From an uncultured Bacillota bacterium (GTDB lineage: Bacteria; Bacillota; Clostridia; Christensenellales; UBA1242): 64,000 nucleotides of DNA. Below the pieces are notes generated by a model that worked only from the letters and a program-made list of their open reading frames with translations, made no database searches and had not been told where the DNA came from. Both the position numbers and the translations under genes were made by a program. Positions 11,049 through 42,982 of the stretch are shown here, piece by piece. Location of the stretch: the NCBI GenBank assembly GCA_948465545.1, contig CAOJXO010000001.1:188450-252449 (forward strand), in the 5' to 3' direction. The first letter of the stretch is position 1. Each line of letters starts with the position of its first letter.

Positions 11049-11070
11049 AACATTCTCCTTTCTAAGCATT

Positions 11071-11272: not shown

Positions 11273-11279
11273 TGAGTAA

Positions 11280-11308: not shown

Positions 11309-11372
11309 GTATTTTTCACAACTTTTTCAATTCAAGAGTATTATGTTTTGACAGCCTTTTTTAGGAGTACAA

Positions 11373-13081: not shown

Positions 13082-13129
13082 ACTGGTTATATTGTAACAC
13101 AAAAGTTTATTTTTTCAAAACATGTTTGC

Positions 13130-13158
13130 TTGACAAAAAAACTCTCGCCGTTTATACT
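13130..13158 (+). promoter_or_regulatory. SigA-type promoter of dnaA
   Basis: TTGACA-17 nt-TATACT. Confidence 0.6.
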
Positions 13159-13189
13159 AAGAATTGATTTAACTTAAAAGGTGGTTACA

Positions 13190-15898: not shown

Positions 15899-15950
15899 GG
15901 TGTGCAGGCACACGTTTTGTATAAGTGTGACATTAACAAAGTAAAATTAA

Positions 15951-15982
15951 AAAAATAAAGAGTGGCGTTTGCCACTTTTTTA
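15951..15982. terminator. Bidirectional terminator between dnaN and dut
   Basis: AGTGGC-gttt-GCCACT hairpin flanked by A- and T-runs. Confidence 0.7.
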
Positions 15983-16507
15983 TTTTACTTTATTAGAACT
16001 TCCCCAACCTTTTTTACCACGCTCTGAAGCGAATGAACAAAGGTCACTATATGATAATTCTTTCACTTTAAATTTTTCTACCCTGTGTATTACACCTTCG
16101 GCTATTGCTTTTCCAGTGTTATAAACAAAGCAAGGCTCTTTAAAAAGTTTTGGATATTTCTTTTTAAGTTCTTCCTCAGTTAAGTTTGAAATTATTAAGT
16201 TTTCTTTTCTTGCATTTAAAATTGAAATTAAAATTTCACCACGATATCCACTATCAATTACGCCAGCATTTTTCTTAATACCTTTACTTCCTGTTGAAGA
16301 ACGCTCTTCAATTTGCATATAGAAGTCACTAGAAATCGCCCATGCAATTCCAGTAGGTACAAGCGTCAGCTCCCCCGGTGAAATTAGCATATAATCCTCA
16401 TCAAAACAAGCATAAAGGTCATAACCTGCGTCCTCATCTTTCTTACTTGGCACGATTGCATTGTCTTTAAGTTTAGCAAAATATATTTCATCTTTTTTAA
16501 TTTTCAT
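15980..16507 (-). CDS. dut: dUTP diphosphatase (trimeric dUTPase family)
   Basis: Motifs AGYDLY, ERSSTG, GVIDSGYRGE and C-terminal RGKKGWGSS. Confidence 0.8.
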   Translation of the reverse strand: MKIKKDEIYFAKLKDNAIVPSKKDEDAGYDLYACFDEDYMLISPGELTLVPTGIAWAISSDFYMQIEERSSTGSKGIKKNAGVIDSGYRGEILISILNARKENLIISNLTEEELKKKYPKLFKEPCFVYNTGKAIAEGVIHRVEKFKVKELSYSDLCSFASERGKKGWGSSNKVK

Positions 16508-16601
16508 AATGTTCTCCTTATCAAAAATTGTAACATAATGGCGTAAGAGTAGTCAAATGGAAGTAAGAAAAAATAAAAAGACCAGCGAAGGCACTTTTTT
16601 A

Positions 16602-16630
16602 TTGACAAAAGCAAATCTTTTATTTATAAT
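16602..16630 (+). promoter_or_regulatory. Consensus SigA promoter of rpmH
   Basis: TTGACA-17 nt-TATAAT, perfect hexamers. Confidence 0.75.
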
Positions 16631-16661
16631 GAGATAGTTACTAAAATAAAGGAGGCAGGAC

Positions 16662-16796
16662 ATGAAAAGAACATATCAGCCAAAGAAAAGACAAAGAAAT
16701 AAGGTTCATGGTTTCAGACAAAGAATGAAAACTACTGGCGGAAGAAATGTTTTGAAAAGAAGAAGAAATCGTGGAAGAAAAAAACTCTCTGCTTAA
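16662..16796 (+). CDS. rpmH: 50S ribosomal protein L34
   Basis: Manual translation gives [44 protein letters not shown] (44 aa). GGAGG lies upstream. Too short for the ORF track. Confidence 0.95.
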
Positions 16797-17118
16797 AACA
16801 AAAGAAAGACCAGACCATAGATTAAAGAAAAATAAACATTTCAGTTATATCTATAAAAAGGGAAAGCGAAAAAGTAGTAAAAATCTGACATTATTCACCG
16901 TGCCAAGCAGGTATAGAAACTATCGAATAGGAATATCTGTTAATAACAAACTTGGAAAGGCTAATGTTAGAAATAAATTAAAAAGACGTCTTAAAGAAAT
17001 AATTAGGCAGGAAAATTTACCAAAAGAATATTTTAACTATGTGCTTTTAGCAAGAGAAGGTTCTCAAAACCTTACATTTGAAGAACTGAAAGTGCAAGTG
17101 AAAGAATTGTTTAAATGA
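16771..17118 (+). CDS. rnpA: RNase P protein component
   Basis: [17 protein letters not shown]...[16 protein letters not shown]. The only in-frame start upstream of the conserved core is GTG 16771, which lies inside rpmH. Confidence 0.8.
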
Positions 17119-17381
17119 AATACATTTTAATGCCATTAAAGTTTTTGGTAAAATTGCCTATTTATTTTTATAAATTTCTCATTTCGCCTTTACTTCCCCA
17201 TGTGTGTAGATTTACCCCCACCTGCTCTAATTACTTTATAGAAGCAGTAAATGAATTTGGGGCATTTAAGGGAGCGGTGTTTGGCTTTAAAAGATTAAGT
17301 CACTGCACGCCAAGAAATCGTCGCTATGGTTATGATCCAGTGCCAATAAATATTAAAGGAGATAGTAAATGGCTATTTTAA
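17115..17381 (+). CDS. yidD: Membrane protein insertion efficiency factor YidD
   Basis: ISPLLPHVCRFTPTCSNYFIEAV motif. ATGA overlap with rnpA. Confidence 0.9.
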   Translation: MKYILMPLKFLVKLPIYFYKFLISPLLPHVCRFTPTCSNYFIEAVNEFGAFKGAVFGFKRLSHCTPRNRRYGYDPVPINIKGDSKWLF

Positions 17382-18721
17382 GCACTCTTCTTGCGGTAAG
17401 TGAACCGTCAGGAATGTGGCAAAGCATAATTAAGGCTTTTGAAGGTTTTACAAATAACTATGTACTTGCAATTATTCTTCTTACTGTGATTATAAGAATA
17501 ATATGGGCACCTATTGATACTGTTAATAAAAGAATGTCTCAAAAGATGGCCGCAAATCAAGCCAAGTTACAGCCAGAACTTGAAAAACTTAAAGCGAAGT
17601 ATGCAAACAATCCACAATTATTAAAACAAAAACAAAACGAACTTTACAGCAAGAATAATACAAATTCAGTTGGCAGTTGTGTTTTTATGTTGATTTTTAT
17701 AGGTTTAAATCTTGCGATATTCTTAACATTATGGCAAGGCTTAAACTCAATGTCAGTGTATAAAACCAGTGAAAGTTATGAAAACTTAAAATATGAATAT
17801 GTAAATTGCTTAAACCTAACAGATAAATATCTTAGTACTAATGAAAATGGTGAGGAGATTTTTAAAGATTATCAGAATTTAAAATTCGTAATTTCTGAAG
17901 ATGGAAAGGCAATTAAACTTGTTCAAACCATCCATAATGAAAGTGGAGAAGATTATGAAAATGTTATTTTTTCAGACCTCTATAATAAAAGTTTTGAAAT
18001 AAAAGACGGCGAAGAAGTTGTTACAACAAACAATCAATATATTCTAAATTTAATAAACACTTATATTTCAAAATCTTCTGTTGAAGCCGAACAAGGAAAA
18101 TACATAGGAGATAAACTTCTTATAGAGAAAGTGGAAGATGAGAATGGTGAAATAGAGGTTGCAGAACTTACATTATCTAGTGCTATTCAAAATGTGGCAA
18201 TGCGTGCGGTTGAAGTTAAATATGAAGAAACTAAAGATAATTTCTTATGGATACAAAACCTCTGGATTGCGGATTCCCCTCTTCAAAACTCAATCTTTGA
18301 ATATGATGCTTTTATTGCAAGTGTAGGCAAAGATAACTATGAAGAAAATGAAAAAGAAATTTATAATAGTTTTATGATTGAACTTCGCAATGACAAAGGA
18401 AGAGTAAATGGATATTTCATTTTACCAATTCTTTGTGTAATTGCAACCTTCCTTACAATGTGGCTTTCAACCCGTAAGAAAAAGGGAGATGCAACCCCTA
18501 GTCAACCAGGTGGAAAGATGACAAAAATAATAATGCCGCTTATCTTTGGTTTGTTTGCGGTGTTCTATAGCAGTATATTTGCAATCTATATGCTTACAGG
18601 ACAGATTATAAGTGCATTGTTGATTCCACTTCAAAATCTTATCTTAGATAAATGGAACAACCATTCTAATAAGAAGAAAAAAGATAAAGTGGAAGTTGTA
18701 GAGTACAGCAGAAAATTTTAA
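17369..18721 (+). CDS. yidC: YidC/Oxa1-family membrane insertase with a large extracytoplasmic insertion
   Basis: LAIILLTVIIRIIWAPI, a KMAANQAKLQPELEKLKAKY amphipathic hairpin, FLWIQNLWIADSP, and C-terminal TM helices. Confidence 0.85.
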   Translation: MAILSTLLAVSEPSGMWQSIIKAFEGFTNNYVLAIILLTVIIRIIWAPIDTVNKRMSQKMAANQAKLQPELEKLKAKYANNPQLLKQKQNELYSKNNTNSVGSCVFMLIFIGLNLAIFLTLWQGLNSMSVYKTSESYENLKYEYVNCLNLTDKYLSTNENGEEIFKDYQNLKFVISEDGKAIKLVQTIHNESGEDYENVIFSDLYNKSFEIKDGEEVVTTNNQYILNLINTYISKSSVEAEQGKYIGDKLLIEKVEDENGEIEVAELTLSSAIQNVAMRAVEVKYEETKDNFLWIQNLWIADSPLQNSIFEYDAFIASVGKDNYEENEKEIYNSFMIELRNDKGRVNGYFILPILCVIATFLTMWLSTRKKKGDATPSQPGGKMTKIIMPLIFGLFAVFYSSIFAIYMLTGQIISALLIPLQNLILDKWNNHSNKKKKDKVEVVEYSRKF

Positions 18722-18735
18722 TTAGGAGGGATATT

Positions 18736-19590
18736 ATGTTATCTGCAGAAGGAACAGGAAAAACTATTGAAAAGGCTATCGAAAGTGCTCTTTTGGAGTT
18801 GAAAGCTCCAAGAGAGGATGTTGATATTAAAATTCTCAGTGAAGGTGGACTTTTCAAAAAAGCAAAAGTTCAGGTAACTATATCTGATGATGCTAAAGAA
18901 AAATATATCAAACGTGAAAAGTTACGCGAGAAAATCGATGAGAAATTTCCAGAAAAAGAAGAAAGCAAAAAAGAAAACTTAAAAAAGATCGAAGAAACTA
19001 AATCTAGAACTGTTGAAGAAAATTATGAAATTTTAAGAGATAGATTGGATAATCTTAAAAAAGAACGTTCAGAAATAAAGACTGGAACTGTTGAAGATCA
19101 AGTTGTTAAGGAAACAGTAAAAGAAAAAGAGGTTAAGAAAGAAAAAGTTGTTGACCCTATTGCTTTCTTGCAAGGCTTCTTCAAGACCTTAAATAAAGTG
19201 GTTGAGATAACTGCACTTGAAGATGATAAGTTTATTACATATTCAGTTAACGGCGAAGACCTTGGCGAAGTAATTGGTAGACGTGGAGAAGCCTATTACG
19301 CACTTTCAAAACTTTTCTTGGCTGTAATAGGTAAACAAGAAAAGAAGGCTCTTTTGGATATTGCTGGCTATCGTGAAAAACGTGAAGAAAGTTTGTCAGC
19401 GGTTGCTAAGCGTACAGCGGACAAGGTGGCAAAGTCTGGAAGATATATTAAGTTAGAACCTATGAAACCTAGCGAAAGACGTATCATTCACACTGCCCTT
19501 CAAGATGATGACAGAGTTACAACATTAAGTAAAGGTACTGAACCTCACAGATATGTAATTATCTTCCCAAAGGAATATAAAGACAAATAA
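18736..19590 (+). CDS. jag: Jag/KhpB RNA-binding protein (Jag_N, KH, R3H) with a Lys/Glu-rich linker
   Basis: GKTIEKAIESALLEL N-terminus and a C-terminal R3H region (PMKPSERRIIHTALQ). Conserved position after yidC. Confidence 0.85.
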   Translation: MLSAEGTGKTIEKAIESALLELKAPREDVDIKILSEGGLFKKAKVQVTISDDAKEKYIKREKLREKIDEKFPEKEESKKENLKKIEETKSRTVEENYEILRDRLDNLKKERSEIKTGTVEDQVVKETVKEKEVKKEKVVDPIAFLQGFFKTLNKVVEITALEDDKFITYSVNGEDLGEVIGRRGEAYYALSKLFLAVIGKQEKKALLDIAGYREKREESLSAVAKRTADKVAKSGRYIKLEPMKPSERRIIHTALQDDDRVTTLSKGTEPHRYVIIFPKEYKDK

Positions 19591-19617
19591 AAAAATGCTT
19601 AATTTAAGCATTTTTTT
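19591..19617 (+). terminator. Terminator after jag
   Basis: TGCTTAA-t-TTAAGCA hairpin plus T7. Confidence 0.7.
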
Positions 19618-19672
19618 ATTTTGCCCTATTTGTATTCTTGATATTTTATATTTTAAATGATATACTGAAAAC

Positions 19673-21010
19673 ATGGAAAAGACAATCGCAAGTATTTCAA
19701 CACCTCTTGGACGTGGTGCTATTGCAATAATAAGAATGAGTGGCTCTGCAAGTTTAAGTATTGCAGAAAAACTTTTTTATTCCACTAAACTGCAATTTAA
19801 AAATATTATCCCCCGCTTTTTATATCTTGGGGATTTCTATTTAGATGAAAATGTTAAAGAAAAGTGTTTGATGGTATATTTTAAAGGTCCTAACTCTTAC
19901 ACTGGTGAGGATATGGTGGAGTTTCAGGTTCATGGAGGCACTTTACTTACCCAAAAAATTTTAGAAAAACTTATTGAGAATGGTGCGTCACTTGCTGGGC
20001 CTGGAGAGTTTTCACGCCGTGCATTTGAAAATGAAAAGATTTCACTTGATGAGGCAGAGAGTATTATCGGAGAAATAAATGCGGAAAGTGAAGGTGAACT
20101 TAATGCATCGCTTGCTGTTGCAGGTGGAAAATTAAAACAAGAGGTTGTTAAAATTCAAAACAGCCTTACAGATGCCCTTGCTGAGATTGAAGCAACCCTT
20201 GATTATCCTGAAGAAGATTTTGAAATTGAAGTAAAAGAAAAAATATTTGCTAATATTAAAGAAGTAAAAGATAAAATTTCTGCCATTGTAAACCAAAGCA
20301 AAAATTTAAAGTATATCAATTATGGTATAAATGTAGGAATAGTGGGTTCTCCAAATGTGGGAAAATCCAGTCTGCTTAATGCTATCTTAGGTGTAGAGCG
20401 TGCGATTGTTACTGATATTGAAGGCACAACAAGAGATAGCATAACTGAGAGTATGGATTATAATGGAATTAAACTAAACTTTATTGATACTGCAGGTATA
20501 CGAAATACTGTAGATAAAGTGGAACAAATCGGAGTTGAAAAAAGCAAAGAGTATATAAAGAGTAGCGATATTGTACTTTATGTTATTGATGGAAGCAGTC
20601 CGCTGTCAGAGGAAGATAAAGAAGTGTTAGATTTGCTACAAGGTCAAAATTATATAGTCGTTGTTAATAAATCTGATAAAGGAAGAGTTGTCCCAGTGTT
20701 TAATAACGAAATTGAAATTTCCGCTTTGCAAAAATTCAATATTGACAATCTGCTTAAGTTGATTTATAATAAAGTTATCACTGAAGAGATTGATTTTAAT
20801 AAACTTGTTGTTACAAATGAAAGACAGGTTGCAATATTGAAAGAGGCTCTTGAAATTATAAATCAAATTTTATCTAATAAAATAGAAAGTATGGATATAA
20901 TCTCAATGTTAATCAAATCTCTTTGGCAAAGTCTAGGCAAAATTACGGGACAATGTGAAAATGAAAGAATAATTGATGTTATTTTCTCAAAATTCTGCCT
21001 AGGAAAGTGA
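19673..21010 (+). CDS. mnmE: tRNA modification GTPase MnmE
   Basis: G1 GSPNVGKSSLLN, DTAGIR, NKSD, and the C-terminal FCLGK motif. Confidence 0.95.
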   Translation: MEKTIASISTPLGRGAIAIIRMSGSASLSIAEKLFYSTKLQFKNIIPRFLYLGDFYLDENVKEKCLMVYFKGPNSYTGEDMVEFQVHGGTLLTQKILEKLIENGASLAGPGEFSRRAFENEKISLDEAESIIGEINAESEGELNASLAVAGGKLKQEVVKIQNSLTDALAEIEATLDYPEEDFEIEVKEKIFANIKEVKDKISAIVNQSKNLKYINYGINVGIVGSPNVGKSSLLNAILGVERAIVTDIEGTTRDSITESMDYNGIKLNFIDTAGIRNTVDKVEQIGVEKSKEYIKSSDIVLYVIDGSSPLSEEDKEVLDLLQGQNYIVVVNKSDKGRVVPVFNNEIEISALQKFNIDNLLKLIYNKVITEEIDFNKLVVTNERQVAILKEALEIINQILSNKIESMDIISMLIKSLWQSLGKITGQCENERIIDVIFSKFCLGK

Positions 21011-32540: not shown

Positions 32541-32570
32541 TTGATAAAAATGGGGTGAAAGTGTTAAAAT
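32541..32570 (+). promoter_or_regulatory. Extended -10 promoter of the giant lipoprotein gene
   Basis: TTGATA-18 nt-TAAAAT with TG at -15/-14. SD GGGGGA lies before ATG 32598. Confidence 0.5.
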
Positions 32571-32597
32571 AAACTAAGATAAAACAGGGGGATTTAA

Positions 32598-35500
32598 ATG
32601 AATAAAATCCGTTCGGCACTGCTTGTTGTTATGCTAACCTTGTTTTCCGCTTTTACTATGGTTGCTTGTGGAAGTGGAAATGACCCCAAAGCAGTTTTTG
32701 CAAAAGAAGAATTTGAGTTATCGCTGGAAGAGACGATAAACTTTTTTGATTATCTTACCTTTGAAAATGTTGATACAGAAAATGTTTCATTATCATTCAG
32801 CAATGACAATCTTTTTAACGTAAATGATAATGGCGAATATACAGCAGTGCAAAGTGGGACGACATTCGTGAAAGTGATGTATGAAGAAAACCTGCTTACA
32901 AGTTGCAAGGTGATTGTTAAACAAATGTTTACTACCCCAACAGATATCGTTGTAAATGATGAGGGAGTGATATCTTGGAAAGGTTCTTCTGCCTTTAATG
33001 ACAACAGCATGGTATCTGCAAATGGATACATAGTGGAAGTTAATGGTGTTGAATATAGTGTCACTGGAACAAGTTTTAACCTTACTGAAAGGGGCGAGTA
33101 CAGTGTACGTGTGAAGGCACAAGCCTTTGGAAAGATAGATGCATCTGCTTACAGCAAGATATATGCAATTAACTATGGTGTTTTGGAAAGGGCGGAGATC
33201 ACTTCTTTCAATGTGTCAAATGATTTTGGAAATCAAGAGGCGGAGATTGAGTGGTCGATAGTGCCTCTTGCAAGATACAATGTTTATCTTGATGGATTTA
33301 AAGTAGAGTCTGAAATCACAAGAAATAGTGTGGTATTAAACTTTTCAAACTTCTATGAAGGGCAAAGTGTAGAAGTTGTTGTTGAGGCTATTGATAGAAC
33401 GGGAAACTTACTTTCAAGTCGCAATACTATCACCGTACAAAAGATTGCAAGGCCAACCCTTAGTTATGATTTTAGTGGAGGGCAAGGAAAGGTTGTTTGG
33501 AATGGCAGTCAGGGTGCAACATCTTATACAATTCAATGTCTTAATAGAAACAATCCTTCTGATGTTCGTGTTATTTATGCAAAAGCTAACGAGGTTGAAA
33601 GTGCGCTTGAAGGGATTTCTTCGGGAATTTATACAGTATCCCTCCAAGCAAATGGCGGGAGAAATGCAAATGGATATTTTGTAAATAGCAATACTGATTC
33701 AAGAGAGTTTGCTAAAATAGCAAAACCTATTGTTTCACATTCTATTCTGGGTGGCAACCTTACTATAAATATTGAGCCAGACAGTTATGCGGAAAACTAT
33801 TTAATTTCATATGGCGATTTTTCTATGATATGGAATGTTAAAGAACGCGGTTATGTTGCAAGTATAAACATCTCCTCTTTTGAGAAGGGAAAACATGATG
33901 TAAAAGTAACCGCACTCCCTTTGACTGATGATAACAAGGTAAAAGAGTTTTCTGAAGGCATGTTTTCAACTTCACGAGTTGTTAACTCTGACTCACATGT
34001 AATAGAAATTTACATATTAGAGAATGTGACAAACATTTCTCATAAGATAGAAGACGGATGTTCTATATTAACTTTTGATGAGGTTGAGTACGCAACACAA
34101 TATATGGTGGAAGTTGGCGGACAAGTGTTTACCGATTTTGTGAAAGAAAATGGAGTTGTGGCATTTAACCTTGGGGAATTAAGCAATGTTGCACCTAGTG
34201 GTGGAGTGTACAAATTTAATATAACCGCAAGCAGAGATGATGGCAACACTATTTCAAGCAGTGGTGAAAAATCAGTTTCTATACTTAACATAACAAGTAA
34301 GGCGGAAGAACAAGAAAATGGATACTACGCATGGAATAAAGTAAACGACAACACCCAATATTTATATGAGATTTATATCGTTGATAAAAACTTCTCTATT
34401 GGTGACGCAGTATCAGGAAATCCTACAGTTATTATAGAAACACCTACATCAGAATTAAAGATAGAAGATAAACTTAATTTTGGATATTACTACATTCGTA
34501 TTTATTCAATCTCAACGGATACTAACATTTATTTGGATTCAAATTTCTATGATGTGGACGGATATTTTGAGGATACATTCTTTGTGACGGAGCAAATTGA
34601 AACCCCTGAATTTGTGTTTAACCTTAATAATAAGTCTATAACAATAAACAAGGTGGCAAATGCCGAGCGGTATGAAATTGAAGTGAATGGTGAGTTGGTT
34701 GGGCGTGTATTTGATAACAACCCAAGTGAACCTACCTTAACTTATAGCCTTGCAAGCAAGTTTGATGAGGCTGGTGTATATGAGATTACAGTAAAAGCAA
34801 GTGCAGATGATGTTTTATATGATACACAATTACATACCCCTTCTGAAAAAGGACTTATATATGTAAATAAATTAAGTGCCCCAACTTTCAGTGTTGATGA
34901 GAAGGAACTATTGAGCGTTGAGGCTGTTGAGAACGCTGATAGTGTTGTAATCAAGCAGGGTGCAAATATTCTTAACCCTGACGGCGAAACCTCATTGTCT
35001 TTAGCAGGCAGAAATGGTGCTTTTGATTTAGTAATGAAATTTGTTGCAAAAGAAAGTCATGAGAATATCTATTATCTTGATAGCAATGAAATTGTTTATC
35101 ATTTTAAACGCACATCTCAACCAACCAACATTGCATTTGCAAGCGGGGTGTTAAGTTTTGATTGTGAAGATAAGGCGTATGTAGATAGATATATTGTTAC
35201 TTTAACTTTATTAGATCCAAACAACAATAACCTTACAATTACCTTTGATATTGAAAGCACAACATTTAACCTTCAAGAGTTTATTGAAGAAAAAGTGGCT
35301 TCTGATATAAGATTTGAATCAGCGTACAGTCAGTGTTCTGGCGTTGAGGTTATGGTAAGTGCTTATAAACTTGGCTTTGCAAATGTTGGGTCGCAAAGAA
35401 CTTTCTTCTTACCATCAGATAATGGCACTACGGCTTCTGGTGCGGGCAAATTAAATTTATCTCAACTTCCAGCACCTCATATTACCTTTAACCCTCAAAC

Positions 35501-38500
35501 CAAACTTTTCAGTTGGAATAGTGTTGGCTCATCGTTGACTAGATACGCAATATATGTTGACGGGGTTCTCATTAGGGATAATCTTGCTGGCACAATAGTT
35601 CCACTTGTTGACGCTATGGATTTTTCTGAGGCAAGAAATATTGTTGTAGTTGCAAGCAATCCTGAATATCTTTCTTCAGCAAATTCAAACACCATCTGTG
35701 TACGTAGACTTCAATCGGTTTCAAATGTTGGAGTGCTAAATTCAAGCGGGACAATATACTTCACTTTACCTAGTATTGACCTTTCACATGTAAAGGCGGT
35801 ATATTGTAACAACAAAGAGGTAAATTTTAATTCTTCAAATGGCTATGTGGCAATTTCCCTTGCAGATTTTGGTTCTGCTGAAACAATTTCTCTTAGCATT
35901 TCAGTTAAGGCGAATGATGGATATACAAACGCAGGTATTACATATTACTTCCTTGATAGCCTTGCATCTAATTATCAGTTTATAAATATTGATGACGAAG
36001 TTATTACTTTGAATGTTAAAGATGGTGTGCTTGTTTGGAATGATATTGCAACTAGTTTTGTAGGCGTTAAAAATAGACCGCTTACCTATACACTTAATAT
36101 CAATAAAGGGGACACCCTTGTTGAGAAAATATCAAACTTGAAAGAAAGTAAGTACAACCTTGATTCTGAGATACTTTTCAAACTTCTCACTGGCGAGTAT
36201 TCACTTAAAGTGGAGGTTGTAATAGATGATTATTCTATTGAATCAGTAGATGGCTCAAAAGGATATTTTGGGTATGCTGAAAGCAATATATTACAGGTCA
36301 AGAAACTTCCAACCTTGCAGGCTGTGGAATTTGACACTGTTGAAGATTCTTCAATTATAAAATTAACAGACCGTAAAGCATCAGCAAAGATAGTCCTTTC
36401 ATGGGAGGATATTTGGACTGATGTGGATAATGTAAGTTTTAATATTGACTTTAATAATGGGACTCAACTTGATAATATAAAAGCGGGTGCGGTGGATCAA
36501 AATTACAGTTTGTCACTTAGTGATGGTAAGTATAGATTAGAATTAAACAACTCTTACTTTACATCTGGCAACAATAGTATAAGTATATCAGTAGATGCAG
36601 ACGCCTCTATAACATCCAACGTTTACAATTATTCAATTTATAGATACAGCACCATTTCAGAACTTTCAATCAGCGACGATGGCATTCTTACTATTACGGC
36701 AGAGGAGAGGGTAGATTCCTTCCTTATAGGTGTGCTTATAGGCGGAAACAATTATTATGTTTCTACAAAGGATAGGCAGTTTAACATCATGGACGGGCTT
36801 CTTGACAAAGCCAGCGGAAACTATACTGTGGAAGTTGTTGGTTTTGATAGTGAGGGTGAGGCGATTTCAACTATGAAAGTGACAAGCATAAATGGCTATC
36901 GCTTAAACGGAATAAGTAATATCTCAATACTTGAAAATGGTAATATTAATATAACACTTTTCAGTGAGGCTGAAATTGATTCAAGAATTGTTTTTGTTGC
37001 AAACTACAATGGCAGAATTTTGACCTTTAATCCAGACAGAGTTGAAAATACAAATACTTTTGTTTATTCAATGTTAGACTTTGTTAAACTTTTTGGTATC
37101 ACTTCCGCAGGTGAGGTTAACCTTAAAGTATCGGTTCAAAAAGAGGGAAATATTAATGCTGACTGGGTAGACGTTGCATTCAATTATGCACTTGAAGATG
37201 TTGGCAATGTGACATACGCTAGGGGTAGAAATTATACCGACGATTATCTTATACTTTCATATCTTGAAGGTACAAGTGCATTTAGATTTGAACTTAATTA
37301 TACTGTTACAGACAGCAATATTCCTGTGACAACCATTAATACTTTTAGTGCAAGTGACTTACATGGATATTGGATTACGACAGATAAAGACGAGCAATAT
37401 TTTGTTAAGGAACTTCCTGCCACAGCGGTTAAGACAAGCGTTGAGTGTTATGGCATAAGCCTTAACGACTTATTAAAAGAAATTAATGGCGGTTCAATTC
37501 AAATTAATATAAGCAGAGTGCAACGCCATACAGACGGCGACAATACGGTATTCTATCAATATAACGTTGTTGGCTTCTCTTGTAATAAACTTATCCCTGT
37601 TACGGGTATAAGAATCAGTAATGATAGGGTTACATGGAACGCATCAACCAGTGCTGATGCTGAATATTATGTTTATTTCTATACATTAGACGGGGCTGAA
37701 TATAACCTTTCTTTCTATAAACATGTTACAACTGCATACATTGATATCTATGATATCGGGCTTGTGGCAGGGGTAAGATATTATATTAATGTGGTGACAG
37801 TATCTCCAACCCTTCGTCAGATTGCATCTAATGCAACCCTTAATGTTGAGGCATTTAAGTATTTAACCCCAACTGCTATAGAGGTGACTGATGGACGACT
37901 AATGTTTAATCGAGAGGATGTTCAAAAATCAGATTTATTTACTTCTATTCAAAACAATTTCAACTTAACTAATGTTACACCTAATGACATTGTTAGAAAT
38001 ATTGCAACCGCAAACTATGATGATATCTACACATTCTCTCCATCTTCAATTTCATCAGTTGTGGTTGAATTAAAGTTCCATTCTCTTGAAAATGGAAGGG
38101 ATTATGTTGTAAGGCGAAATGCAGTTGATCTTATGCCAGATATATCACAATACACATTTAAGACAAATCAAGATACTGACATTTCTTATCTGCAAGCATT
38201 GTATGATGCTGCACGTCAGTCTACCGAGCAGTATACTTATAGGCTTGATGTAGAGCGTATGTATAACGCATACTTAAATGCAAATGGAATTGCAGACTTT
38301 GAAATGTTGTTTGATGAGTTTGGTTCAAGTATTCCTGCTGGTGATTATGAGTTGTCGATTAGCCAAGAGGGGGTAGTTTTAGGTTCAGTTGGATATATCA
38401 CTTCTCATCCAACAAACACTGTTAAAGTGCATGTTGGAAGTGCGCCTAATATTAATCTTTCACGCATCTCACCAAATGGAAGAAATGAATATATAGTTTC

Positions 38501-41500
38501 GTTTACCCCAACAATGATAAAGGCTAAGGAGGGGGATGTAACAGTTTCAACTATTGCAAAGAGATATACTATGTATATGGTTAGTGCAGATAGGTCATCA
38601 CAATACTTCTTCACCATTGAAAATAATGGCACTGATGAAGAGCCTATCTATGAAATCATAAATGTTATGACTCCTACTAAGGATAGTTACGGTAAGATTT
38701 CATATAAGACATCAGCATTCGAATCGCCTATTAGGCTTGGTTATACAAATGGTAGGGTTGTAATCAACTTTACAAATGATTTGCTTCCTGCTTTCCCAGA
38801 TATTGTTAGGGCAACCTACTCATTTACAATATTCGCACAAGGAAATGATGTTACAATCAATAGTAAAACTGACATGTCTACAATTACACTTTTAGGTATT
38901 GATTATACAAATATCAATTTAAATAATGGTGTTCTCACATGGCGTACAGTTGGAAGTTCTGACTATAAGACTAGGGTGACATATAAGAAAGAGGGCGAGG
39001 GTGAAGATACCCGCGATATTGATTTTATAAACGGTCAAGCCTCACTTAGCCTTCCAGATCCAGGCGAGTACAAATATATCATTATAAGTATATTAGGTAC
39101 AATCGGTCAAAGTAGTATGACCGTGGATAGCGAAAGTTATCTTATTGAAAACATATACAAACTTACATCTCCAAGTGTATCAAAGACGGGCAATGTGTTT
39201 ACTTTAACAAATCAAAATCAAAGCAAATTCTATGCTTACACACAATTTGAGATAACTAACAATGTGGCAAAAAATACAGATGGAATAAAATCATATCTTA
39301 CAAGTTTGCTGACTGATAGGGTTTACAATTATAGTGCAGGAATTTTAGGTATGGATTCAACAAATGCTGATTATGCATACAAAGCCACCGAACAAGATGC
39401 CACAGAGTTCTACTTTGCAAGTATTGGAAACAGCACAAGATTTGTTGCTGGTGAAAGACTTGGCGAAGGAAACACCTACTATGGAAAAGCGGACTTTGTG
39501 TTAGTGCCTCCTGAGGATAGCAATATAAAATATTGTGTTCTCAACTCAAACGAAGTGCCAGTATCAGCAAGAATGCTGAAGGCGCCAACCGATCTTAAAG
39601 TTGAAAATGGCGACATTGTTTGGACTGAGAGCCCTGATGCAACAAGCGAGGATCTTCCAGCAAACAGCACGCTTGTATATGAAATTAATATACATTATTA
39701 CAAAGCAAAAGAGGACGGCTCTTACGAGATAATAGGTTCAACAGCAACCTTCTATACAACAGGGACAACATTTGACACAATCAATATTGTTGCACGTGAT
39801 GATGCAGAGTACTATATCTTTGAAGTTAGAAGTTTTGTATTCTCAAATGGTAATCAAGCAAATCATGATATTACAACCATTGACGGGCAGTATTTTAGAC
39901 GCAGTGCCGTTGAGTATCTTTCTGGTGGGGCTATTCTAGGAAGTGAGTATGCAACACTTGGCAATCACACAAGCACTATATCTAAGATTAAACCTATTAT
40001 AAATCAGAAGATTGCGAATGGAGAATTTACATGGCAAACACAGGATTCAAGCAACGGCTATGAGTGTGTTGTTGTAGACGGGGACGGAAATGTTGTACCA
40101 GGAGAATTGTTTGGAGCAGGCACAACAAATTGGAGTTTTATCCCAGATATAACTTATGAGAATAATCCATATTCATTTAAGGTTTATGTTTATGATAGGT
40201 TAACAACAACCTTGAAATCTAATCCTGTTGCTGTAACACTTGGCACAAGCAGTGAAGTGCGGGTGCTTCCAATGGTAACAAGTGAAGATTTTGCCATTGA
40301 AAAAATTGATAATGGTTATAGAATTAATCTTGAAAACCTGTATACAAACAAACAGATTTACGATACAGATGTTTACTATAATGTTAAGATGACTGTGGAA
40401 ATCGGTTATAGTGACGGTAGAAAAGAATCTCTTGAAGTAGGCTCATTTGATAGTCAGTCAAACAGTAACCGTAATTTCATTCTTACAAACGATATAGAGT
40501 TCAGTGCAAATGGAAATATTGTAAACTTACCACAAAGATATGAAAGTTTAAATATTAAATTCCAAGTACTTGTAAGGACTCAGGCTTCACAAAGCGTTAT
40601 GCTTCTTAACGGCAAGGAGAGCGAAACCTTTGCCCTTACCCCACTTGCTTGGAATGAAAACGATAAAATCACATGGAATCCAGACTTGTATCAATTTGAA
40701 TGGACTTTCGGCGAAGAGGACTTTGCTGATGCACTTTTCAATATTGATATTCAATATTCAGACGGAAACCATGAAATCAGTGATGTTGCAGGGTTAAGTT
40801 ATCAGCCTCATAAGGTAGGCACAATAATTTCTGCAAGACTGCTTGTCAGAAAAGATGCAAACTCACTTTACTCTACCGAAGCGATTGAACTTAATGAGGT
40901 TATAAGTTTCTATCTGTTTGAGGGTGGTGATGGTTCTCAAACAAACCCTTATAGAGTTGCCTCTGCAAGTCAGTTCGCAAATATAAAGTACAGAAATTCT
41001 AACAAGGAAAAATTCTATTTCCGCCAAACCGCAAGTTTTGAGGTGTCTGCCACTGGCTTTGCCTTTGATGATACCTTCTATGGCGAGTATGACGGAGGTG
41101 GATTTACAATCACATTTACAGGTGAAGCAGAGGAGATGACAGCAAGCAATCTGTCACTCCTTGCCAGCACCAGCACAAGTGAAACAACAAAAACATTTGT
41201 AAGGTTTGGCTCTCTCTTCAAGGGGATTGACGGCTCTGCAAAGGTGTCTAACTTAAAACTCAATCTTAATTTTAACAGCACTCAAACTTCTCAAAACACC
41301 TTGTTTGCAGGACTTGCTGTTACAAATTACGGTCAGATTGAAAATGTGGAAATCTTATCAATAAACACAAAATATTCAATAGGCAGGGTAAGTGACATTT
41401 CAATCGCACAAACAGGACTTGTGGCTATCAACTATGGCCGCATAACCGACTGTGTAAATAGTGCCGATATTAATATGACGGCGACTGCTGCATATACCTA

Positions 41501-42068
41501 TGGTTATAATTTGATAGTTTCAGGGCTTGTATTCACAAACGATACAAGCGGGAACAACTTTATAGGTACGCTTACAAGATGTTTCAATAAAGGAAAGATT
41601 GATGTTAGCGTATCACGCAGTAACAGTGCAATGTGGATAAGCGGTGTTGTTCTTAACAACATTGGCGGTAAAATGGCACAATGCGGAAACGATGGCAATA
41701 TTAATGCAAACGGCTCAGTGTTTACAAGTTACATTGCTGGCGTAGTTATGAGGAGTATAGGCGGAGATATCTCTTACACATATAACAATGGTGAAATAAA
41801 ATCAAACTCTTCTTCTAATTATGCGGGCGGTGTTGCCTACTATTTAAGAGGGGTAAGGATTGCTGGACTTGTTGATACCAACACATATATTGCTAGGGTA
41901 TGTACCAGTATAACAAACAGCACCACTGTTTCAAGTTATTGTAAGGTGGCTTATCAAACTTCTGGCATAAATATAGTTGCAATCGAACCAACCATTTTGT
42001 CTTGTGGTGACGGCCATTCACTTACAATTACCGCTGTGGAAGACGGATATAAGGCTTCTATTTCTTAA
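32598..42068 (+). CDS. Giant (3156 aa) surface lipoprotein: Big_2-like module, a long array of FN3/Ig-like modules, and a C-terminal GLUG-type parallel beta-helix
   Basis: Uninterrupted 9.47-kb ORF. Lipobox LFSAFTMVAC/GSG. Recurrent h-x-W...Y-x-[IV] module openings. C-terminal NPYRVASASQF...FYGEYDGGGFTITFTG is followed by repeated GL[VA]xxNxGxIxxCxNxGxI turns. Confidence 0.85.
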   Translation: MNKIRSALLVVMLTLFSAFTMVACGSGNDPKAVFAKEEFELSLEETINFFDYLTFENVDTENVSLSFSNDNLFNVNDNGEYTAVQSGTTFVKVMYEENLLTSCKVIVKQMFTTPTDIVVNDEGVISWKGSSAFNDNSMVSANGYIVEVNGVEYSVTGTSFNLTERGEYSVRVKAQAFGKIDASAYSKIYAINYGVLERAEITSFNVSNDFGNQEAEIEWSIVPLARYNVYLDGFKVESEITRNSVVLNFSNFYEGQSVEVVVEAIDRTGNLLSSRNTITVQKIARPTLSYDFSGGQGKVVWNGSQGATSYTIQCLNRNNPSDVRVIYAKANEVESALEGISSGIYTVSLQANGGRNANGYFVNSNTDSREFAKIAKPIVSHSILGGNLTINIEPDSYAENYLISYGDFSMIWNVKERGYVASINISSFEKGKHDVKVTALPLTDDNKVKEFSEGMFSTSRVVNSDSHVIEIYILENVTNISHKIEDGCSILTFDEVEYATQYMVEVGGQVFTDFVKENGVVAFNLGELSNVAPSGGVYKFNITASRDDGNTISSSGEKSVSILNITSKAEEQENGYYAWNKVNDNTQYLYEIYIVDKNFSIGDAVSGNPTVIIETPTSELKIEDKLNFGYYYIRIYSISTDTNIYLDSNFYDVDGYFEDTFFVTEQIETPEFVFNLNNKSITINKVANAERYEIEVNGELVGRVFDNNPSEPTLTYSLASKFDEAGVYEITVKASADDVLYDTQLHTPSEKGLIYVNKLSAPTFSVDEKELLSVEAVENADSVVIKQGANILNPDGETSLSLAGRNGAFDLVMKFVAKESHENIYYLDSNEIVYHFKRTSQPTNIAFASGVLSFDCEDKAYVDRYIVTLTLLDPNNNNLTITFDIESTTFNLQEFIEEKVASDIRFESAYSQCSGVEVMVSAYKLGFANVGSQRTFFLPSDNGTTASGAGKLNLSQLPAPHITFNPQTKLFSWNSVGSSLTRYAIYVDGVLIRDNLAGTIVPLVDAMDFSEARNIVVVASNPEYLSSANSNTICVRRLQSVSNVGVLNSSGTIYFTLPSIDLSHVKAVYCNNKEVNFNSSNGYVAISLADFGSAETISLSISVKANDGYTNAGITYYFLDSLASNYQFINIDDEVITLNVKDGVLVWNDIATSFVGVKNRPLTYTLNINKGDTLVEKISNLKESKYNLDSEILFKLLTGEYSLKVEVVIDDYSIESVDGSKGYFGYAESNILQVKKLPTLQAVEFDTVEDSSIIKLTDRKASAKIVLSWEDIWTDVDNVSFNIDFNNGTQLDNIKAGAVDQNYSLSLSDGKYRLELNNSYFTSGNNSISISVDADASITSNVYNYSIYRYSTISELSISDDGILTITAEERVDSFLIGVLIGGNNYYVSTKDRQFNIMDGLLDKASGNYTVEVVGFDSEGEAISTMKVTSINGYRLNGISNISILENGNINITLFSEAEIDSRIVFVANYNGRILTFNPDRVENTNTFVYSMLDFVKLFGITSAGEVNLKVSVQKEGNINADWVDVAFNYALEDVGNVTYARGRNYTDDYLILSYLEGTSAFRFELNYTVTDSNIPVTTINTFSASDLHGYWITTDKDEQYFVKELPATAVKTSVECYGISLNDLLKEINGGSIQINISRVQRHTDGDNTVFYQYNVVGFSCNKLIPVTGIRISNDRVTWNASTSADAEYYVYFYTLDGAEYNLSFYKHVTTAYIDIYDIGLVAGVRYYINVVTVSPTLRQIASNATLNVEAFKYLTPTAIEVTDGRLMFNREDVQKSDLFTSIQNNFNLTNVTPNDIVRNIATANYDDIYTFSPSSISSVVVELKFHSLENGRDYVVRRNAVDLMPDISQYTFKTNQDTDISYLQALYDAARQSTEQYTYRLDVERMYNAYLNANGIADFEMLFDEFGSSIPAGDYELSISQEGVVLGSVGYITSHPTNTVKVHVGSAPNINLSRISPNGRNEYIVSFTPTMIKAKEGDVTVSTIAKRYTMYMVSADRSSQYFFTIENNGTDEEPIYEIINVMTPTKDSYGKISYKTSAFESPIRLGYTNGRVVINFTNDLLPAFPDIVRATYSFTIFAQGNDVTINSKTDMSTITLLGIDYTNINLNNGVLTWRTVGSSDYKTRVTYKKEGEGEDTRDIDFINGQASLSLPDPGEYKYIIISILGTIGQSSMTVDSESYLIENIYKLTSPSVSKTGNVFTLTNQNQSKFYAYTQFEITNNVAKNTDGIKSYLTSLLTDRVYNYSAGILGMDSTNADYAYKATEQDATEFYFASIGNSTRFVAGERLGEGNTYYGKADFVLVPPEDSNIKYCVLNSNEVPVSARMLKAPTDLKVENGDIVWTESPDATSEDLPANSTLVYEINIHYYKAKEDGSYEIIGSTATFYTTGTTFDTINIVARDDAEYYIFEVRSFVFSNGNQANHDITTIDGQYFRRSAVEYLSGGAILGSEYATLGNHTSTISKIKPIINQKIANGEFTWQTQDSSNGYECVVVDGDGNVVPGELFGAGTTNWSFIPDITYENNPYSFKVYVYDRLTTTLKSNPVAVTLGTSSEVRVLPMVTSEDFAIEKIDNGYRINLENLYTNKQIYDTDVYYNVKMTVEIGYSDGRKESLEVGSFDSQSNSNRNFILTNDIEFSANGNIVNLPQRYESLNIKFQVLVRTQASQSVMLLNGKESETFALTPLAWNENDKITWNPDLYQFEWTFGEEDFADALFNIDIQYSDGNHEISDVAGLSYQPHKVGTIISARLLVRKDANSLYSTEAIELNEVISFYLFEGGDGSQTNPYRVASASQFANIKYRNSNKEKFYFRQTASFEVSATGFAFDDTFYGEYDGGGFTITFTGEAEEMTASNLSLLASTSTSETTKTFVRFGSLFKGIDGSAKVSNLKLNLNFNSTQTSQNTLFAGLAVTNYGQIENVEILSINTKYSIGRVSDISIAQTGLVAINYGRITDCVNSADINMTATAAYTYGYNLIVSGLVFTNDTSGNNFIGTLTRCFNKGKIDVSVSRSNSAMWISGVVLNNIGGKMAQCGNDGNINANGSVFTSYIAGVVMRSIGGDISYTYNNGEIKSNSSSNYAGGVAYYLRGVRIAGLVDTNTYIARVCTSITNSTTVSSYCKVAYQTSGINIVAIEPTILSCGDGHSLTITAVEDGYKASIS

Positions 42069-42109: not shown

Positions 42110-42982
42110 ATGAAGAAGTTTTGTTTTGTAATCGCGTTAATATTATCATGTTGCATGTTCTTTGGTTGTGGCGGTCAAAGACTGCCTTCTTCAAACGAGT
42201 TTATTCTGCTGTCAGTGTCAGCGGATAGCGAAGGGCAGATGACACAATCGCTCAACTTTTCGCTTGGCAGTGATAAACTTGATGGGGCGGGTGCAACAGC
42301 CTTAGACAGGGCAAATATAAAAAATAAACTTATTGAAAATGTTAAGGTTTTTAGAGCGGAGTTTTATCTAAACTTTGCAATCGTATACAATCAGTCCTCA
42401 GCGGAGAATAAAGAGGAATACCAAATTGGTAAGGGACTTCTAATATCAGAGGTGGTGTATACCGAAGCGTCTGACTCGGTTGGTTTCAATATGGTTTTCA
42501 CATCAAGTGACGCATGGAACTTCTATCACCCAAAATCATCTGACGGCGAAAGCCAGCCAGATGTTGAGTATGGATATTTGGTAATTTCAAGTTCAAAAGG
42601 ATTGTTCCCTTTTGCTGGCGAAGTTGAGGTGTCTGGCAATAAGATTATGGTTGGCGAAAGATATGTAAATGCCTATAAAGATGCACTTAGTCAAGCAAGC
42701 AACCTTAGCGTGCAATATGACCCTGACCTTGTGTATGACTATGGCACAAAAGAGCCTAGTATCAGAAGCGATAGCGAATACTATTTTGTAGATAACAGCG
42801 GAATCTATCATCATGTTTGGATGCGTAAGCATAGCGAATATGTGAATAACACATCTATTGAAATTTACATCATGCAAGCCAATAGGGGATTATGGTATGC
42901 CACTGCACTTGGTGGTACACTTTTAGTTCTGGGGATAGCAATTATAATCATAAAACTTAAACAGAAAAAACAGCCTAAATAA
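42110..42982 (+). CDS. Lipoprotein with an additional C-terminal TM anchor, function unknown
   Basis: Lipobox SCCMFFGC/GGQ. C-terminal LWYATALGGTLLVLGIAIIIIKL followed by KQKKQPK. Lies 41 nt after the giant gene with no terminator in between. Confidence 0.7.
   Translation: MKKFCFVIALILSCCMFFGCGGQRLPSSNEFILLSVSADSEGQMTQSLNFSLGSDKLDGAGATALDRANIKNKLIENVKVFRAEFYLNFAIVYNQSSAENKEEYQIGKGLLISEVVYTEASDSVGFNMVFTSSDAWNFYHPKSSDGESQPDVEYGYLVISSSKGLFPFAGEVEVSGNKIMVGERYVNAYKDALSQASNLSVQYDPDLVYDYGTKEPSIRSDSEYYFVDNSGIYHHVWMRKHSEYVNNTSIEIYIMQANRGLWYATALGGTLLVLGIAIIIIKLKQKKQPK

Follow-up and report, generated by a model that had tools for sequence, protein, structure and literature searches.

The window analysed here, a stretch of 64,000 nucleotides of DNA from an uncultured gut Clostridia bacterium, contains a single ATG-initiated open reading frame for a protein of 3156 residues and about 346 kDa, and neither Pfam nor NCBIfam gave a match for this protein. 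What kind of protein is this giant, and what might it do for the cell that makes it? Its carriers, deposited under the labels Christensenella, Catabacter and Caccovivens, are uncultured and come from metagenome-assembled genomes only. Such bacteria are common in gut metagenomes of humans and other animals, and we know of no work on their surface biology; a search of the literature on giant or surface lipoproteins in Christensenellales brought up nothing relevant. We propose, with a probability of roughly 0.6, that the giant is a candidate fibrillar adhesin of reversed polarity and conserved length, reaching roughly 100 nm.

Table 1. Features of the giant gene and its surroundings (window coordinates).
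Feature	Residues	Coordinates	Strand	Basis
Putative promoter-like site, TTGATA, 18-nt spacer, TG-extended TAAAAT		32541..32570	+	consensus pattern match, sigma-70-like, 10/12 matches
Ribosome-binding site AGGGGGA, Shine-Dalgarno-like		32586..32592	+	read from sequence; 5 nt before ATG
Giant ORF	1-3156	32598..42068	+	ORF listing
Signal peptide with lipobox, ...FTMVA-C24	1-24	32598..32669	+	PS51257-type pattern; C24 invariant in 15 homologues
First module after Cys24	25-108	32670..32921	+	weak profile link to stalk tile at aa 1285, probability 77%
Putative stalk of about 25 diverged FN3/Ig-like beta-sandwich modules	109-2772	32922..40913	+	profile links, AF2, Foldseek
Helix-bearing insertion in mid-stalk domain	1772-1911	37911..38330	+	DSSP on AF2 model: helices, model residues 203-342
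GLUG-type right-handed beta-helix head	2773-3095	40914..41882	+	profile, AlphaFold model, Foldseek, Glug relatives
Conserved C-terminal beta cap	3096-3156	41883..42065	+	strands, model residues 340-396; pLDDT about 94-96 at end
Partner gene, 290 aa	1-290	42110..42982	+	starts 41 nt past giant stop

Integrity of the reading frame

A reading frame of this size invites the suspicion of an assembly error. The 90%-identity cluster of the giant has nine members, seven of which are 3154-3156 aa long, and they are drawn from NCBI, ENA and Logan assemblies and more than 20 contigs. Because this cluster is nearly uniform in length across independent contigs, we conclude that the ORF did not arise from misassembly, in agreement with the single frame described in the first-pass annotation. 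The peptide strings quoted there were all found at the positions given, among them ISWKGSS at residue 125 (nt 32970), RVTWNAS... at residue 1677 (nt 37626) and GGDGSQTNPY at residue 2776 (nt 40923). Its statement that the gene lacks long nucleotide repeats was borne out as well: TRF reported three trivial arrays of at most 24 nt, and a repeat search gave nothing beyond pairs of 21-28 nt that chance would explain. At the protein level, self-BLASTP at E<1 and word size 2 showed no internal repeat. An exact look-up found no recorded identical entry for the giant of the window, and the cluster representative P0001 differs from it by at least one residue.

An N-terminal lipobox and no other known anchor

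The N-terminus, MNKIRSALLVVMLTLFSAFTMVAC, satisfies a PROSITE PS51257-type lipobox rule with its cysteine at position 24. As applied here, the lipoprotein pattern consists of a K or R in the n-region, an uncharged h-region and the lipobox [LIVMFWSTAG](2)-[LIVMFYSTAGCQ]-[AGS]-C, with the cysteine at positions 15-35; the giant has K3 and R5, then ...TMVA-C24. A lipid anchor had been proposed earlier, with the provision that loss of the cysteine in homologues would speak against it. The Cys24 column is invariant in all 15 full-length homologues; 10 of these pass the strict PROSITE-type pattern and five fail it, though the cysteine is present. Lipidation of Cys24 is a prediction from a pattern, and one that the alignment is consistent with. 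The earlier statement that LPXTG, SLH and choline-binding anchors are missing also stands. The last 60 residues are free of LPXTG-like motifs in all 15 homologues, no domain of these kinds was found by Pfam, and SLH, CWB, LysM and GW domains gave no Pfam match in the giant or in 15 family members. Elsewhere in the giant there is no hydrophobic run of 15 or more residues and no transmembrane segment. The mature protein is acidic (pI 4.5), with abundant S, N and T.

A predicted long stalk of diverged beta-sandwich modules

The first-pass annotation described the bulk of the protein as a stalk of FN3/Ig-like modules, and two lines of evidence uphold this. Profile-profile comparison links modules between residues 116 and 1135 to one another with probabilities of 53-96%, and to tiles as far as residue 2305 with probabilities of 73-92%. 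An AF2 model of residues 1570-2769 (mean pLDDT 73 and pTM 0.45, hence of moderate confidence, from a 12-sequence alignment) is almost all beta and contains about 10 domains. Foldseek matched it to tandem FN3/Ig chains at E values of 4e-16 to 1e-4, the best being the thick-filament chain 8q6t_I (E 4e-16), with further matches to the ROS1/Sevenless ectodomains, gp130, the leptin receptor, fibronectin FN7-10 and contactin FN1-3. The model thus supports a tandem seven-strand Ig-like/FN3 beta-sandwich fold for residues 1570-2769; residues 1-1569 are tied to the stalk by profile homology.

Pfam fn3 (PF00041) gave no match at E<=1 in the giant of the window, and sub-threshold fn3 matches at E<=0.01 were seen in three of the 15 homologues (best E 0.0014). 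The module immediately after Cys24 had been called Big_2-like, an assignment that no search supported: it has no Pfam match at E<=1, Big_2 or other, and the family profile has no PDB sequence match there.

How many modules make up the stalk cannot be counted from sequence alone. Iterative hmmsearch seeded with the module at residues 200-290 converged at three modules per protein, and the modules were therefore counted by profile-profile comparison and from the AF2 model instead. Profile-profile comparison interlinked about eight modules, or about 14 at lower stringency. Our estimate is about 26, so that the earlier figure of 25-30, made by eye, was about right. At 3.5-4 nm per module, such a stalk would be roughly 100 nm long. 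In the predicted structure the stalk is not uniform, with a helical insertion at residues of about 1772-1911. This insertion ends at LFD(D/E)FG..IPAG.Y, the most conserved motif of the stalk; G1897, F1905, G1915 and Y1917 are invariant.

A predicted C-terminal beta-helix head with its own cap

The C-terminal part begins with an N-terminal cap, LF.GG.G...PY.I, followed by at least six rungs of the form G(L/V)(A/V).N.G.I, with rung motifs located at residues 2905, 2940, 3016 and 3048. After the rungs comes the small closing cap, with the motif ...CGDG(H/Y).L.I....Y.A.I, whose tail is conserved across the family alignment. Against PDB sequences, the profile of residues 2773-3156 found the GLUG structure 3n6z at E 3.4e-6, as did the full-length family profile at E 1.6e-5. 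The AlphaFold model of the head has a pLDDT of 86.8, and its best Foldseek matches were 3n6z (E 2e-5) and the Streptococcus pneumoniae IgA1 protease (6xja, 6xjb). Of the seven relatives of the head outside the family, five carry PF07581 Glug. In the giant of the window Pfam Glug (PF07581) gave no match at E<=1, and it appeared in one of 15 homologues, below threshold (E 0.0088).

The proposal of a GLUG beta-helix head is thus sustained by profile, by fold and by the out-of-family relatives. Modelling of segments, which the first-pass annotation had suggested as a check, gave a beta-helix for the head and about ten beta-sandwich domains for residues 1570-2769. The same source had named as telling against it an outcome in which profile searches find neither FN3/Ig nor GLUG signatures. 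That is what the Pfam and NCBIfam scans returned, and it was overturned by family profiles and predicted structures.

The window contains a second giant ORF (55784-64000+), which was considered as a possible second carrier of a GLUG head and rejected (BLASTP E>1, no Pfam or NCBIfam match).

A closed family at a fixed chromosomal position

The giant belongs to a closed family, unannotated until now, that comprises about 94 representative clusters in a set of 1.84 billion proteins. Almost all of the clusters are 3032-4041 aa long, with the central region at a matching relative position, and the 15 aligned homologues are collinear end to end. A pattern search for related loci with the single giant protein gave 20 matches, none of which was confirmed; related loci were gathered with BipA as a syntenic anchor, which yielded 80 species representatives. 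The giant stands upstream of BipA in 49 of these. The other 31, several of them truncated by short contigs, have no giant adjoining BipA. At two of these loci, L006 and L027, unrelated genes (pyruvate formate-lyase, helicase, AddAB) are found where the giant would stand, and the idea of a shorter replacement gene there was rejected, as no variant form is present. On the evidence of these two and the other loci that lack it, the gene may therefore not be universal.

Gene order is fixed: pseudouridine synthase, giant, a membrane partner of roughly 290 aa, BipA and DnaB. The locus is on the leading strand near oriC, with dnaA about 19 kb away. The 41-nt gap between giant and partner holds no terminator-like site. 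In the partner protein, a lipobox (..FFG-C20) at the N-terminus is joined by an extracellular part of roughly 240 aa, the motif N(R/K)G(W)WY and, C-terminally, a transmembrane helix and a Lys-rich tail. By tblastn it was found just downstream of the giant at 47 of the 49 BipA-anchored giant loci and at both loci of full-length homologues, and at L083, where a rearrangement inverted the giant, the partner is still within about 3 kb. Its family comprises 84 clusters of 157-328 aa, nearly all of 268-328 aa, free of Pfam domains and named only 'hypothetical protein', and the protein itself has no PDB sequence match, Pfam domain or NCBIfam match.

Within this stable setting the giant evolves very fast. 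At locus L003, 43% identity in the giant stands against 93% in BipA, and further comparisons gave 24-36% for the giant and 80-91% for BipA. The divergence is even over the whole length.

An origin of the giant as a phage tail fibre or tailspike was considered and rejected, given its position in the housekeeping chromosome near oriC. The strong viral structural matches of the head were only to proteins labelled GLUG or 'IgA1 protease'.

A model for the giant as a fibrillar adhesin

By the working definition of Monzon et al. 2021 (PMC8286594), a fibrillar adhesin-like protein is extracellular and combines an anchor and a stalk with an adhesive region at one end. The giant has the predicted counterparts of each: signal peptide, stalk, terminal beta-helix and lipobox anchor. 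In our model, it would be exported via Sec by a monoderm, spore-forming gut Clostridia bacterium, and the lipid on Cys24 would tie its N-terminus to the cytoplasmic membrane, in the outer leaflet. The tandem modules would then form a single-chain stalk that lifts the head through and past the cell wall, leaving it exposed at the surface. There the head would be a distal, non-catalytic surface that binds a glycan or protein carried by host mucus, by food particles or by other cells. The partner probably acts with the giant close to the membrane, in docking, assembly or signalling. It is the placement of a putative binding surface at the distal end of an anchored stalk that leads us to read the giant as a fibrillar adhesin. 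The fast divergence supports this reading, being of the kind expected in surface-protein evolution, and we count the acidic, S/N/T-rich composition of the mature protein on the same side. We know of no GLUG beta-helix with an experimentally defined ligand.

In typical adhesins, near-identical repeats make the length variable, and the distribution is patchy. The adhesin reading is weakened because this family has neither the repeat-driven length variation nor the patchiness. Its conserved length, its orthologous, non-repetitive modules and its fixed housekeeping position near oriC look more like those of a core structural component.

Alternative readings

A tentative alternative follows from these last features: the giant, together with its membrane partner, could be a core envelope ruler or strut that sets a fixed spacing or tethers neighbouring cells or an outer layer (a sheath, S-layer-like coat or capsule), with the beta-helix docking to a component of the cell's own. 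The narrow range of lengths, the constant relative position of the central region, the collinearity of the homologues, the lack of recent repeats, the fixed synteny near dnaA and a partner beside almost every copy would all fit such a role. Very fast divergence, however, is more typical of proteins that face hosts, phages or competitors than of scaffolds that dock to self, and the 31 of 80 representatives in which no giant adjoins BipA, even with several cut by short contigs among them, argue against this role, as do the unrelated genes at L006 and L027. In its boldest and rather unlikely form, this idea would make giant and partner a lineage-defining, vertically inherited envelope organelle of uncultured Christensenellales-like gut Clostridia, a lipid-anchored ruler of about 100 nm encoded beside the replication origin. 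If true, selection would act on length rather than sequence, with the ruler spacing or tethering an outer layer or partner cells; to our knowledge, a fixed-length ruler principle has not been described for monoderm bacteria.

The head might instead be a displayed enzyme, a polysaccharide lyase, glycosidase or protease kept some way off the cell and attacking mucin, plant polysaccharide or other cells. Pectate and alginate lyases, polygalacturonases and the depolymerases of phage tailspikes fold as right-handed beta-helices, such enzymes do appear among the weak Foldseek matches of the head (E 0.08-1), and its nearest solved relatives bear the label 'IgA1 protease'. We find this improbable, since the enzyme matches have Foldseek probabilities of at most 0.2 and TM-scores of about 0.2, against probabilities of 1.0 for the GLUG matches, and the head has no conserved acidic or basic catalytic cluster. 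Conserved positions there are taken up by Gly, Asn and hydrophobic side chains, and R2799 and D2832 are the only charged ones. No catalytic motif is conserved, HExxH is absent from all 15 members, Peptidase_M26 gave no Pfam match in the giant or the 15 family members, and no CAZyme domain was found by Pfam. In the S. pneumoniae IgA1 protease, moreover, the homologous beta-helix is a non-catalytic gating domain and the catalytic residues lie elsewhere (PMC7695701), so that what the head shares with the M26 metalloprotease is only its non-catalytic beta-helix.

Proximity to sporulation genes suggests a spore appendage or exosporium fibre: yabP, yabQ and spoIIP lie 1-3 kb upstream, and yabP is also near the giant in L002. 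These genes are on the opposite strand, however, with the pseudouridine synthase gene in between; the promoter-like site upstream of the giant is of the sigma-70 type; the lipobox suggests a place in the cytoplasmic membrane, be it that of the vegetative cell or of the forespore, rather than in an assembled spore coat; and searches gave no similarity to known spore-appendage proteins, which makes a spore filament very improbable. The size of the giant, its beta-helix and the small gene immediately downstream also recall contact-dependent toxin delivery, or a polymorphic toxin of the CdiA, Rhs or LXG-like kind with a C-terminal effector. This reading is already disfavoured and barely plausible, as the C-terminal 60 residues are the family-conserved beta cap instead of a variable toxin domain, the downstream gene encodes a conserved exported membrane protein and not a variable cytoplasmic immunity protein, and no toxin or PADLOC-type families were found, the Pfam and NCBIfam scans being empty.

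Significance and comparison with known systems

The family of giants is probably the largest surface structure of its carriers. Read as a fibrillar adhesin, the giant is a concrete candidate for attachment to host or particles, and a clean case of a monoderm adhesin that is anchored at its N-terminus and bears its head at the C-terminus. The family also offers a natural experiment on the constraints acting on giant stalk proteins, with length and domain order frozen and sequence drifting down to about 25% identity, and the co-inherited partner gene provides a handle on how the giant is assembled or held at the membrane. Published screens for fibrillar adhesins depend on Pfam domains for stalk, adhesive region and anchor, and left out lipoprotein anchors (PMC8286594). 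Since the giant has no Pfam domain of any of these kinds, domain-based screens would miss it, and the family is invisible both to them and to domain-based annotation.

The stalk resembles eukaryotic FN3/Ig chains (titin-like thick-filament proteins, ROS1/Sevenless, gp130, fibronectin FN7-10) in being built of seven-strand beta-sandwiches of roughly 90-120 aa. The likeness is one of fold only, at 8-12% identity, with global TM-scores of about 0.1, as low as one would expect of flexible multi-domain chains. Unlike the eukaryotic chains, some domains of the giant are larger or carry helical inserts.

The head shares with 3n6z (BACOVA_03286, a 'putative IgA1 protease') and with 6xja and 6xjb (the N-terminal beta-helix of the S. 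pneumoniae IgA1 metalloprotease) both the N-terminal cap LF.G.GT...PY.I....Q..N and rungs of the form G(G/L)(I/V).G.N.G.I.N(C/S). It differs from PF07581 GLUG proteins in falling below Glug HMM significance and in having no M26 peptidase module attached, and from its GLUG relatives in that the helix forms the C-terminal tip of a stalk, closed by its own small conserved cap.

Closest in architecture are the fibrillar adhesins of Gram-positive bacteria, such as the sortase-anchored Cna of Staphylococcus aureus (PMC8286594). Like them, the giant is a single polypeptide with a signal peptide, a tandem Ig/FN3-like stalk, a distinct terminal non-stalk domain and fast sequence evolution. Fibrillar adhesins of Firmicutes usually have an N-terminal adhesive domain and a C-terminal LPXTG motif, and the surveyed anchors excluded the lipoprotein type (PMC8286594), whereas the giant has its lipobox anchor at the N-terminus and its head at the C-terminus. 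It further departs from these adhesins in that its modules have diverged from one another about as far as unrelated sequences, with no variation in their number, and in that both its length and its chromosomal position are conserved lineage-wide.

The giant gene and its chromosomal setting

The giant protein of the window, predicted to be lipid-anchored, is encoded by one ATG-initiated ORF (see table). All peptide strings quoted in the first-pass annotation were found at the coordinates it gave, and its remark that the gene lacks long nucleotide repeats was correct: tandem and dispersed repeats were limited to chance 21- to 28-mers, and BLASTP of the protein against itself found no self-similarity. 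The 90%-identity cluster of the giant has nine members, seven of them 3154–3156 aa long; NCBI, ENA and Logan assemblies together place them on over 20 contigs. Because these lengths recur across independent assemblies, the ORF is intact and not an assembly artefact.

The cumulative GC skew of the window (GC content ~35%) reaches its minimum at ~12–14 kb, flanked by RecF and DnaA, so the chromosomal replication origin probably lies inside the window at this site. The giant gene is therefore presumed to lie ~19 kb from the origin, as it does from dnaA, on the leading strand.

A second giant ORF, open for more than 2750 codons, continues past the window end. It has a signal peptide (MKKKVLKSIYCMAIILLTLGTLSFVPMFKSNNASA) and no Pfam or NCBIfam match, and BLASTP found no similarity to the head of the first giant. 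It follows a class I tRNA synthetase gene, and at the syntenic position locus L085 has a giant of 8231 aa and locus L083 one of 5853 aa that carries Flg_new repeats. Both giant ORFs of the window are on the leading strand, less than 45 kb from the presumed origin.

Features at and around the giant gene, in window coordinates
Feature	Position	Strand	Remark
RecF	12005-13102	minus	at cumulative GC skew minimum
DnaA	13181-14536	+	at cumulative GC skew minimum
Desulfoferrodoxin, GNAT, SpoIIP, YabQ, YabP, pseudouridine synthase			5' of giant; housekeeping and sporulation
Sigma-70-like extended -10 promoter match	32541-32570	+	pattern match
Shine-Dalgarno AGGGGGA	32586-32592	+	good match, 5' of giant ATG
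Giant ORF	32598-42068	+	3156 codons (ORF listing)
LFD(D/E)FG..IPAG.Y motif	~38286-38348		aa ~1897-1917
Partner gene	42110-42982		starts 41 nt past giant stop
Stretch between partner and BipA	42995-44423		includes 144-aa minus-strand ORF, no family match
Two tandem Xre-type HTH_3 genes	43538-43978, 43980-44423		between partner and BipA
BipA/TypA, DnaB, GltX, inositol monophosphatase, Ogt, class I (Trp/Tyr-type) tRNA synthetase			3' of giant
Adjacent 298-aa and 368-aa genes	48083-50082		between DnaB and GltX; no Pfam match
Second giant ORF	55745-64000	+	likely start ATG 55784

Anchor, stalk and head

The N-terminus follows the PS51257-type lipobox rule (K3, R5, an uncharged core and TMVA-C24). 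The lipobox cysteine proposed earlier is an invariant alignment column in 15/15 homologues, ten of which match the strict pattern, and the giant is presumably lipidated. It has no second hydrophobic segment, and, in line with the first reading, both an LPXTG-like motif and a wall-binding domain are absent.

The best Pfam or NCBIfam E-value for the giant was no better than 0.02, with zero fn3, Big_2 or Glug matches, which leaves the Big_2-like first module of the first-pass annotation unsupported. Among 15 full-length homologues, fn3 was found in three, always sub-threshold (best E 0.0014), and Glug in one (E 0.0088). Standard profile searches of the giant thus find neither FN3/Ig nor GLUG signatures, an outcome that the first-pass annotation had named as refuting its reading if taken literally, although a profile of the head does match a GLUG structure. 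This profile (aa 2760–3156), compared with PDB sequences, matched 3n6z, the GLUG-motif beta-helix of Bacteroides ovatus BACOVA_03286 (E 3.4e-6), with which the head shares the cap motif LF.GnGt...PY.I. AlphaFold2 gave a confident all-beta model of the head from a 15-sequence alignment (pLDDT 86.8, pTM 0.89), and the best Foldseek matches in the PDB were 3n6z (E 2e-5, probability 1.0) and the IgA1 protease of S. pneumoniae (6xja, 6xjb). For generic beta-helix enzymes and tailspikes, E was no better than 0.08 and the probability low, and a viral structure library gave the same picture. Of seven sequence relatives of the head outside the family, five carry PF07581 Glug, alongside Peptidase_M26_N, Flg_new or BACON. 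Profile match, fold match and these relatives together bear out the GLUG-type beta-helix; a small beta cap, also conserved, makes up the C-terminal 60 residues.

In the head, conservation falls on Gly, Asn and hydrophobic residues; R2799 and D2832 are the only conserved charged positions, and HExxH is absent from all 15 members. Since, in addition, the homologous beta-helix of pneumococcal IgA1 protease is a non-catalytic gating domain (PMC7695701), we class the head as a GLUG-type scaffold lacking a catalytic site of its own.

Stalk modules were compared profile–profile as 120-aa tiles of the family alignment. Modules across aa 85–1700 were linked at 73–97% probability and tiles at ~2005, 2245 and 2305 weakly, and in seeded comparisons eight ~85-aa modules from aa 116 to 1135 formed a core robustly related to one another. 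AlphaFold2 predicted aa 1570–2769 (12 sequences) as an almost all-beta chain (pLDDT 73, pTM 0.45), which we divide into about ten domains, one with a helical insertion (aa 1772–1911). Foldseek matched this model to tandem FN3/Ig chains, as expected for the FN3/Ig-like stalk first proposed: thick-filament chain 8q6t_I (E 4e-16), the ROS1 and Sevenless ectodomains, the gp130, OSMR and leptin receptors, fibronectin FN7-10, contactin FN1-3 and a bacterial 'large adhesion protein' repeat (6xi3). Taking ~92-aa modules in the first 1570 residues, the stalk would total about 26 modules. An FN3-type domain is ~3.5–4 nm long, so the stalk would be roughly 100 nm in length. The motif LFD(D/E)FG..IPAG.Y closes the helix-bearing insertion of the mid-stalk. 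No other block of the central stalk is as conserved (G1897, F1905, G1915 and Y1917 are invariant), and the motif might act as a hinge, bind a metal or serve for docking.

A discrete family with a probable membrane partner

A search of 5.8 billion proteins recovered the 15 homologues (3141–3723 aa, 24–37% identical), which are collinear with the giant over essentially its full length; all are unnamed and lack precomputed Pfam domains. The central region (aa 1759–2310) was also used as a profile to search the full set of 1.84 billion 50%-identity representatives. Of the 98 proteins matched, 94 had E<1e-30, and scores jumped from E 7.5e-35 to 6.6e-16 with nothing in between. Almost all 94 are 3032–4041 aa long, in two length classes (~3.1–3.3 k and ~3.5–3.9 k residues), with the central match at the same relative position. 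From this abrupt drop in score and this uniformity, the family is closed and discrete.

Around two full-length homologues (34% and 24% identical) the same order recurs: pseudouridine synthase, giant, ~290-aa partner gene, BipA, 88-aa gene, DnaB, two unknown genes and GltX. With BipA as an anchor we gathered the 80 closest GTDB species representatives, all metagenome-assembled genomes, from the gut of human, mouse, rabbit, deer and others. In their deposited form they are named uncultured Clostridia, Eubacteriales, Christensenella sp. or Catabacter sp., and Catabacter has since become a synonym of Christensenella (order Christensenellales); one partner homologue carries the label Candidatus Caccovivens. 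A tblastn search of the 10 kb 5' of BipA found a giant match in 49/80, with the partner just 3' of it in 47; both genes are also present at the two full-length homologue loci (L001, L002). The two loci without a partner match (L045, L054) belong to distant relatives, so these misses may reflect a detection limit. The other 31 loci gave no giant match: several are truncated where a short contig ends, and a few have unrelated genes. Two of these, L006 and L027, have BipA 86–88% identical, yet neither giant nor partner in that 10 kb; at the giant position L006 has pyruvate formate-lyase with its activase and an SF1 helicase-nuclease, and L027 has AddAB. In L083 (GCA_051888935.1, Ca. Caccovivens sp., 10001..20843) a local rearrangement has inverted the giant (3681 aa), which lies across BipA from the partner, the two still within ~3 kb; L085 retains the canonical order.

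The gap between giant and partner contains no terminator-like site. The partner has its own lipobox (FFG-C20) and a C-terminal TM helix after N(R/K)G(W)WY, followed by a Lys-rich tail; by a simple test, the C-terminal tail includes a long hydrophobic run in 42 of 50 recovered orthologues. Its family comprises 84 clusters, nearly all of 268–328 aa, with no Pfam domain and only the name 'hypothetical protein'. Since BipA directly follows the partner in L001, L002 and L085, the stretch between them in the window looks like a small lineage-specific insertion. Further downstream, L001, L083 and L085 have genes of 270–299 aa and 358–373 aa where the window has its 298-aa and 368-aa genes, which by size and position look like a conserved pair in the lineage.

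Evolution and comparison with known adhesins

Locus L003 has a giant 43% identical and a BipA 93% identical to those of the window, and where BipA is 80–91% identical the giant is 24–36% identical, with divergence even along the entire protein. What most sets the family apart is this pairing of rapid sequence change with a fixed length, domain order and position. The main rival to the favoured reading as a fibrillar adhesin, that the giant is a structural ruler or tether, draws on the conserved length and the core-like synteny; we consider it unlikely, and we disfavour an enzyme, a spore filament or a polymorphic toxin.

Lipobox, FN3-like stalk and GLUG beta-helix are each of already-known kinds. 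We found no published description of their combination and polarity, of the giant's invisibility to domain databases and its closed giants-only family, or of its fixed near-origin position and obligate membrane partner. Fibrillar adhesins of Firmicutes usually have an N-terminal adhesive domain and a C-terminal sortase anchor (Monzon et al., PMC8286594). In that survey, which does not extend to lipoprotein anchors, sortase-less proteins show a small C-terminal peak that is left unexplained.
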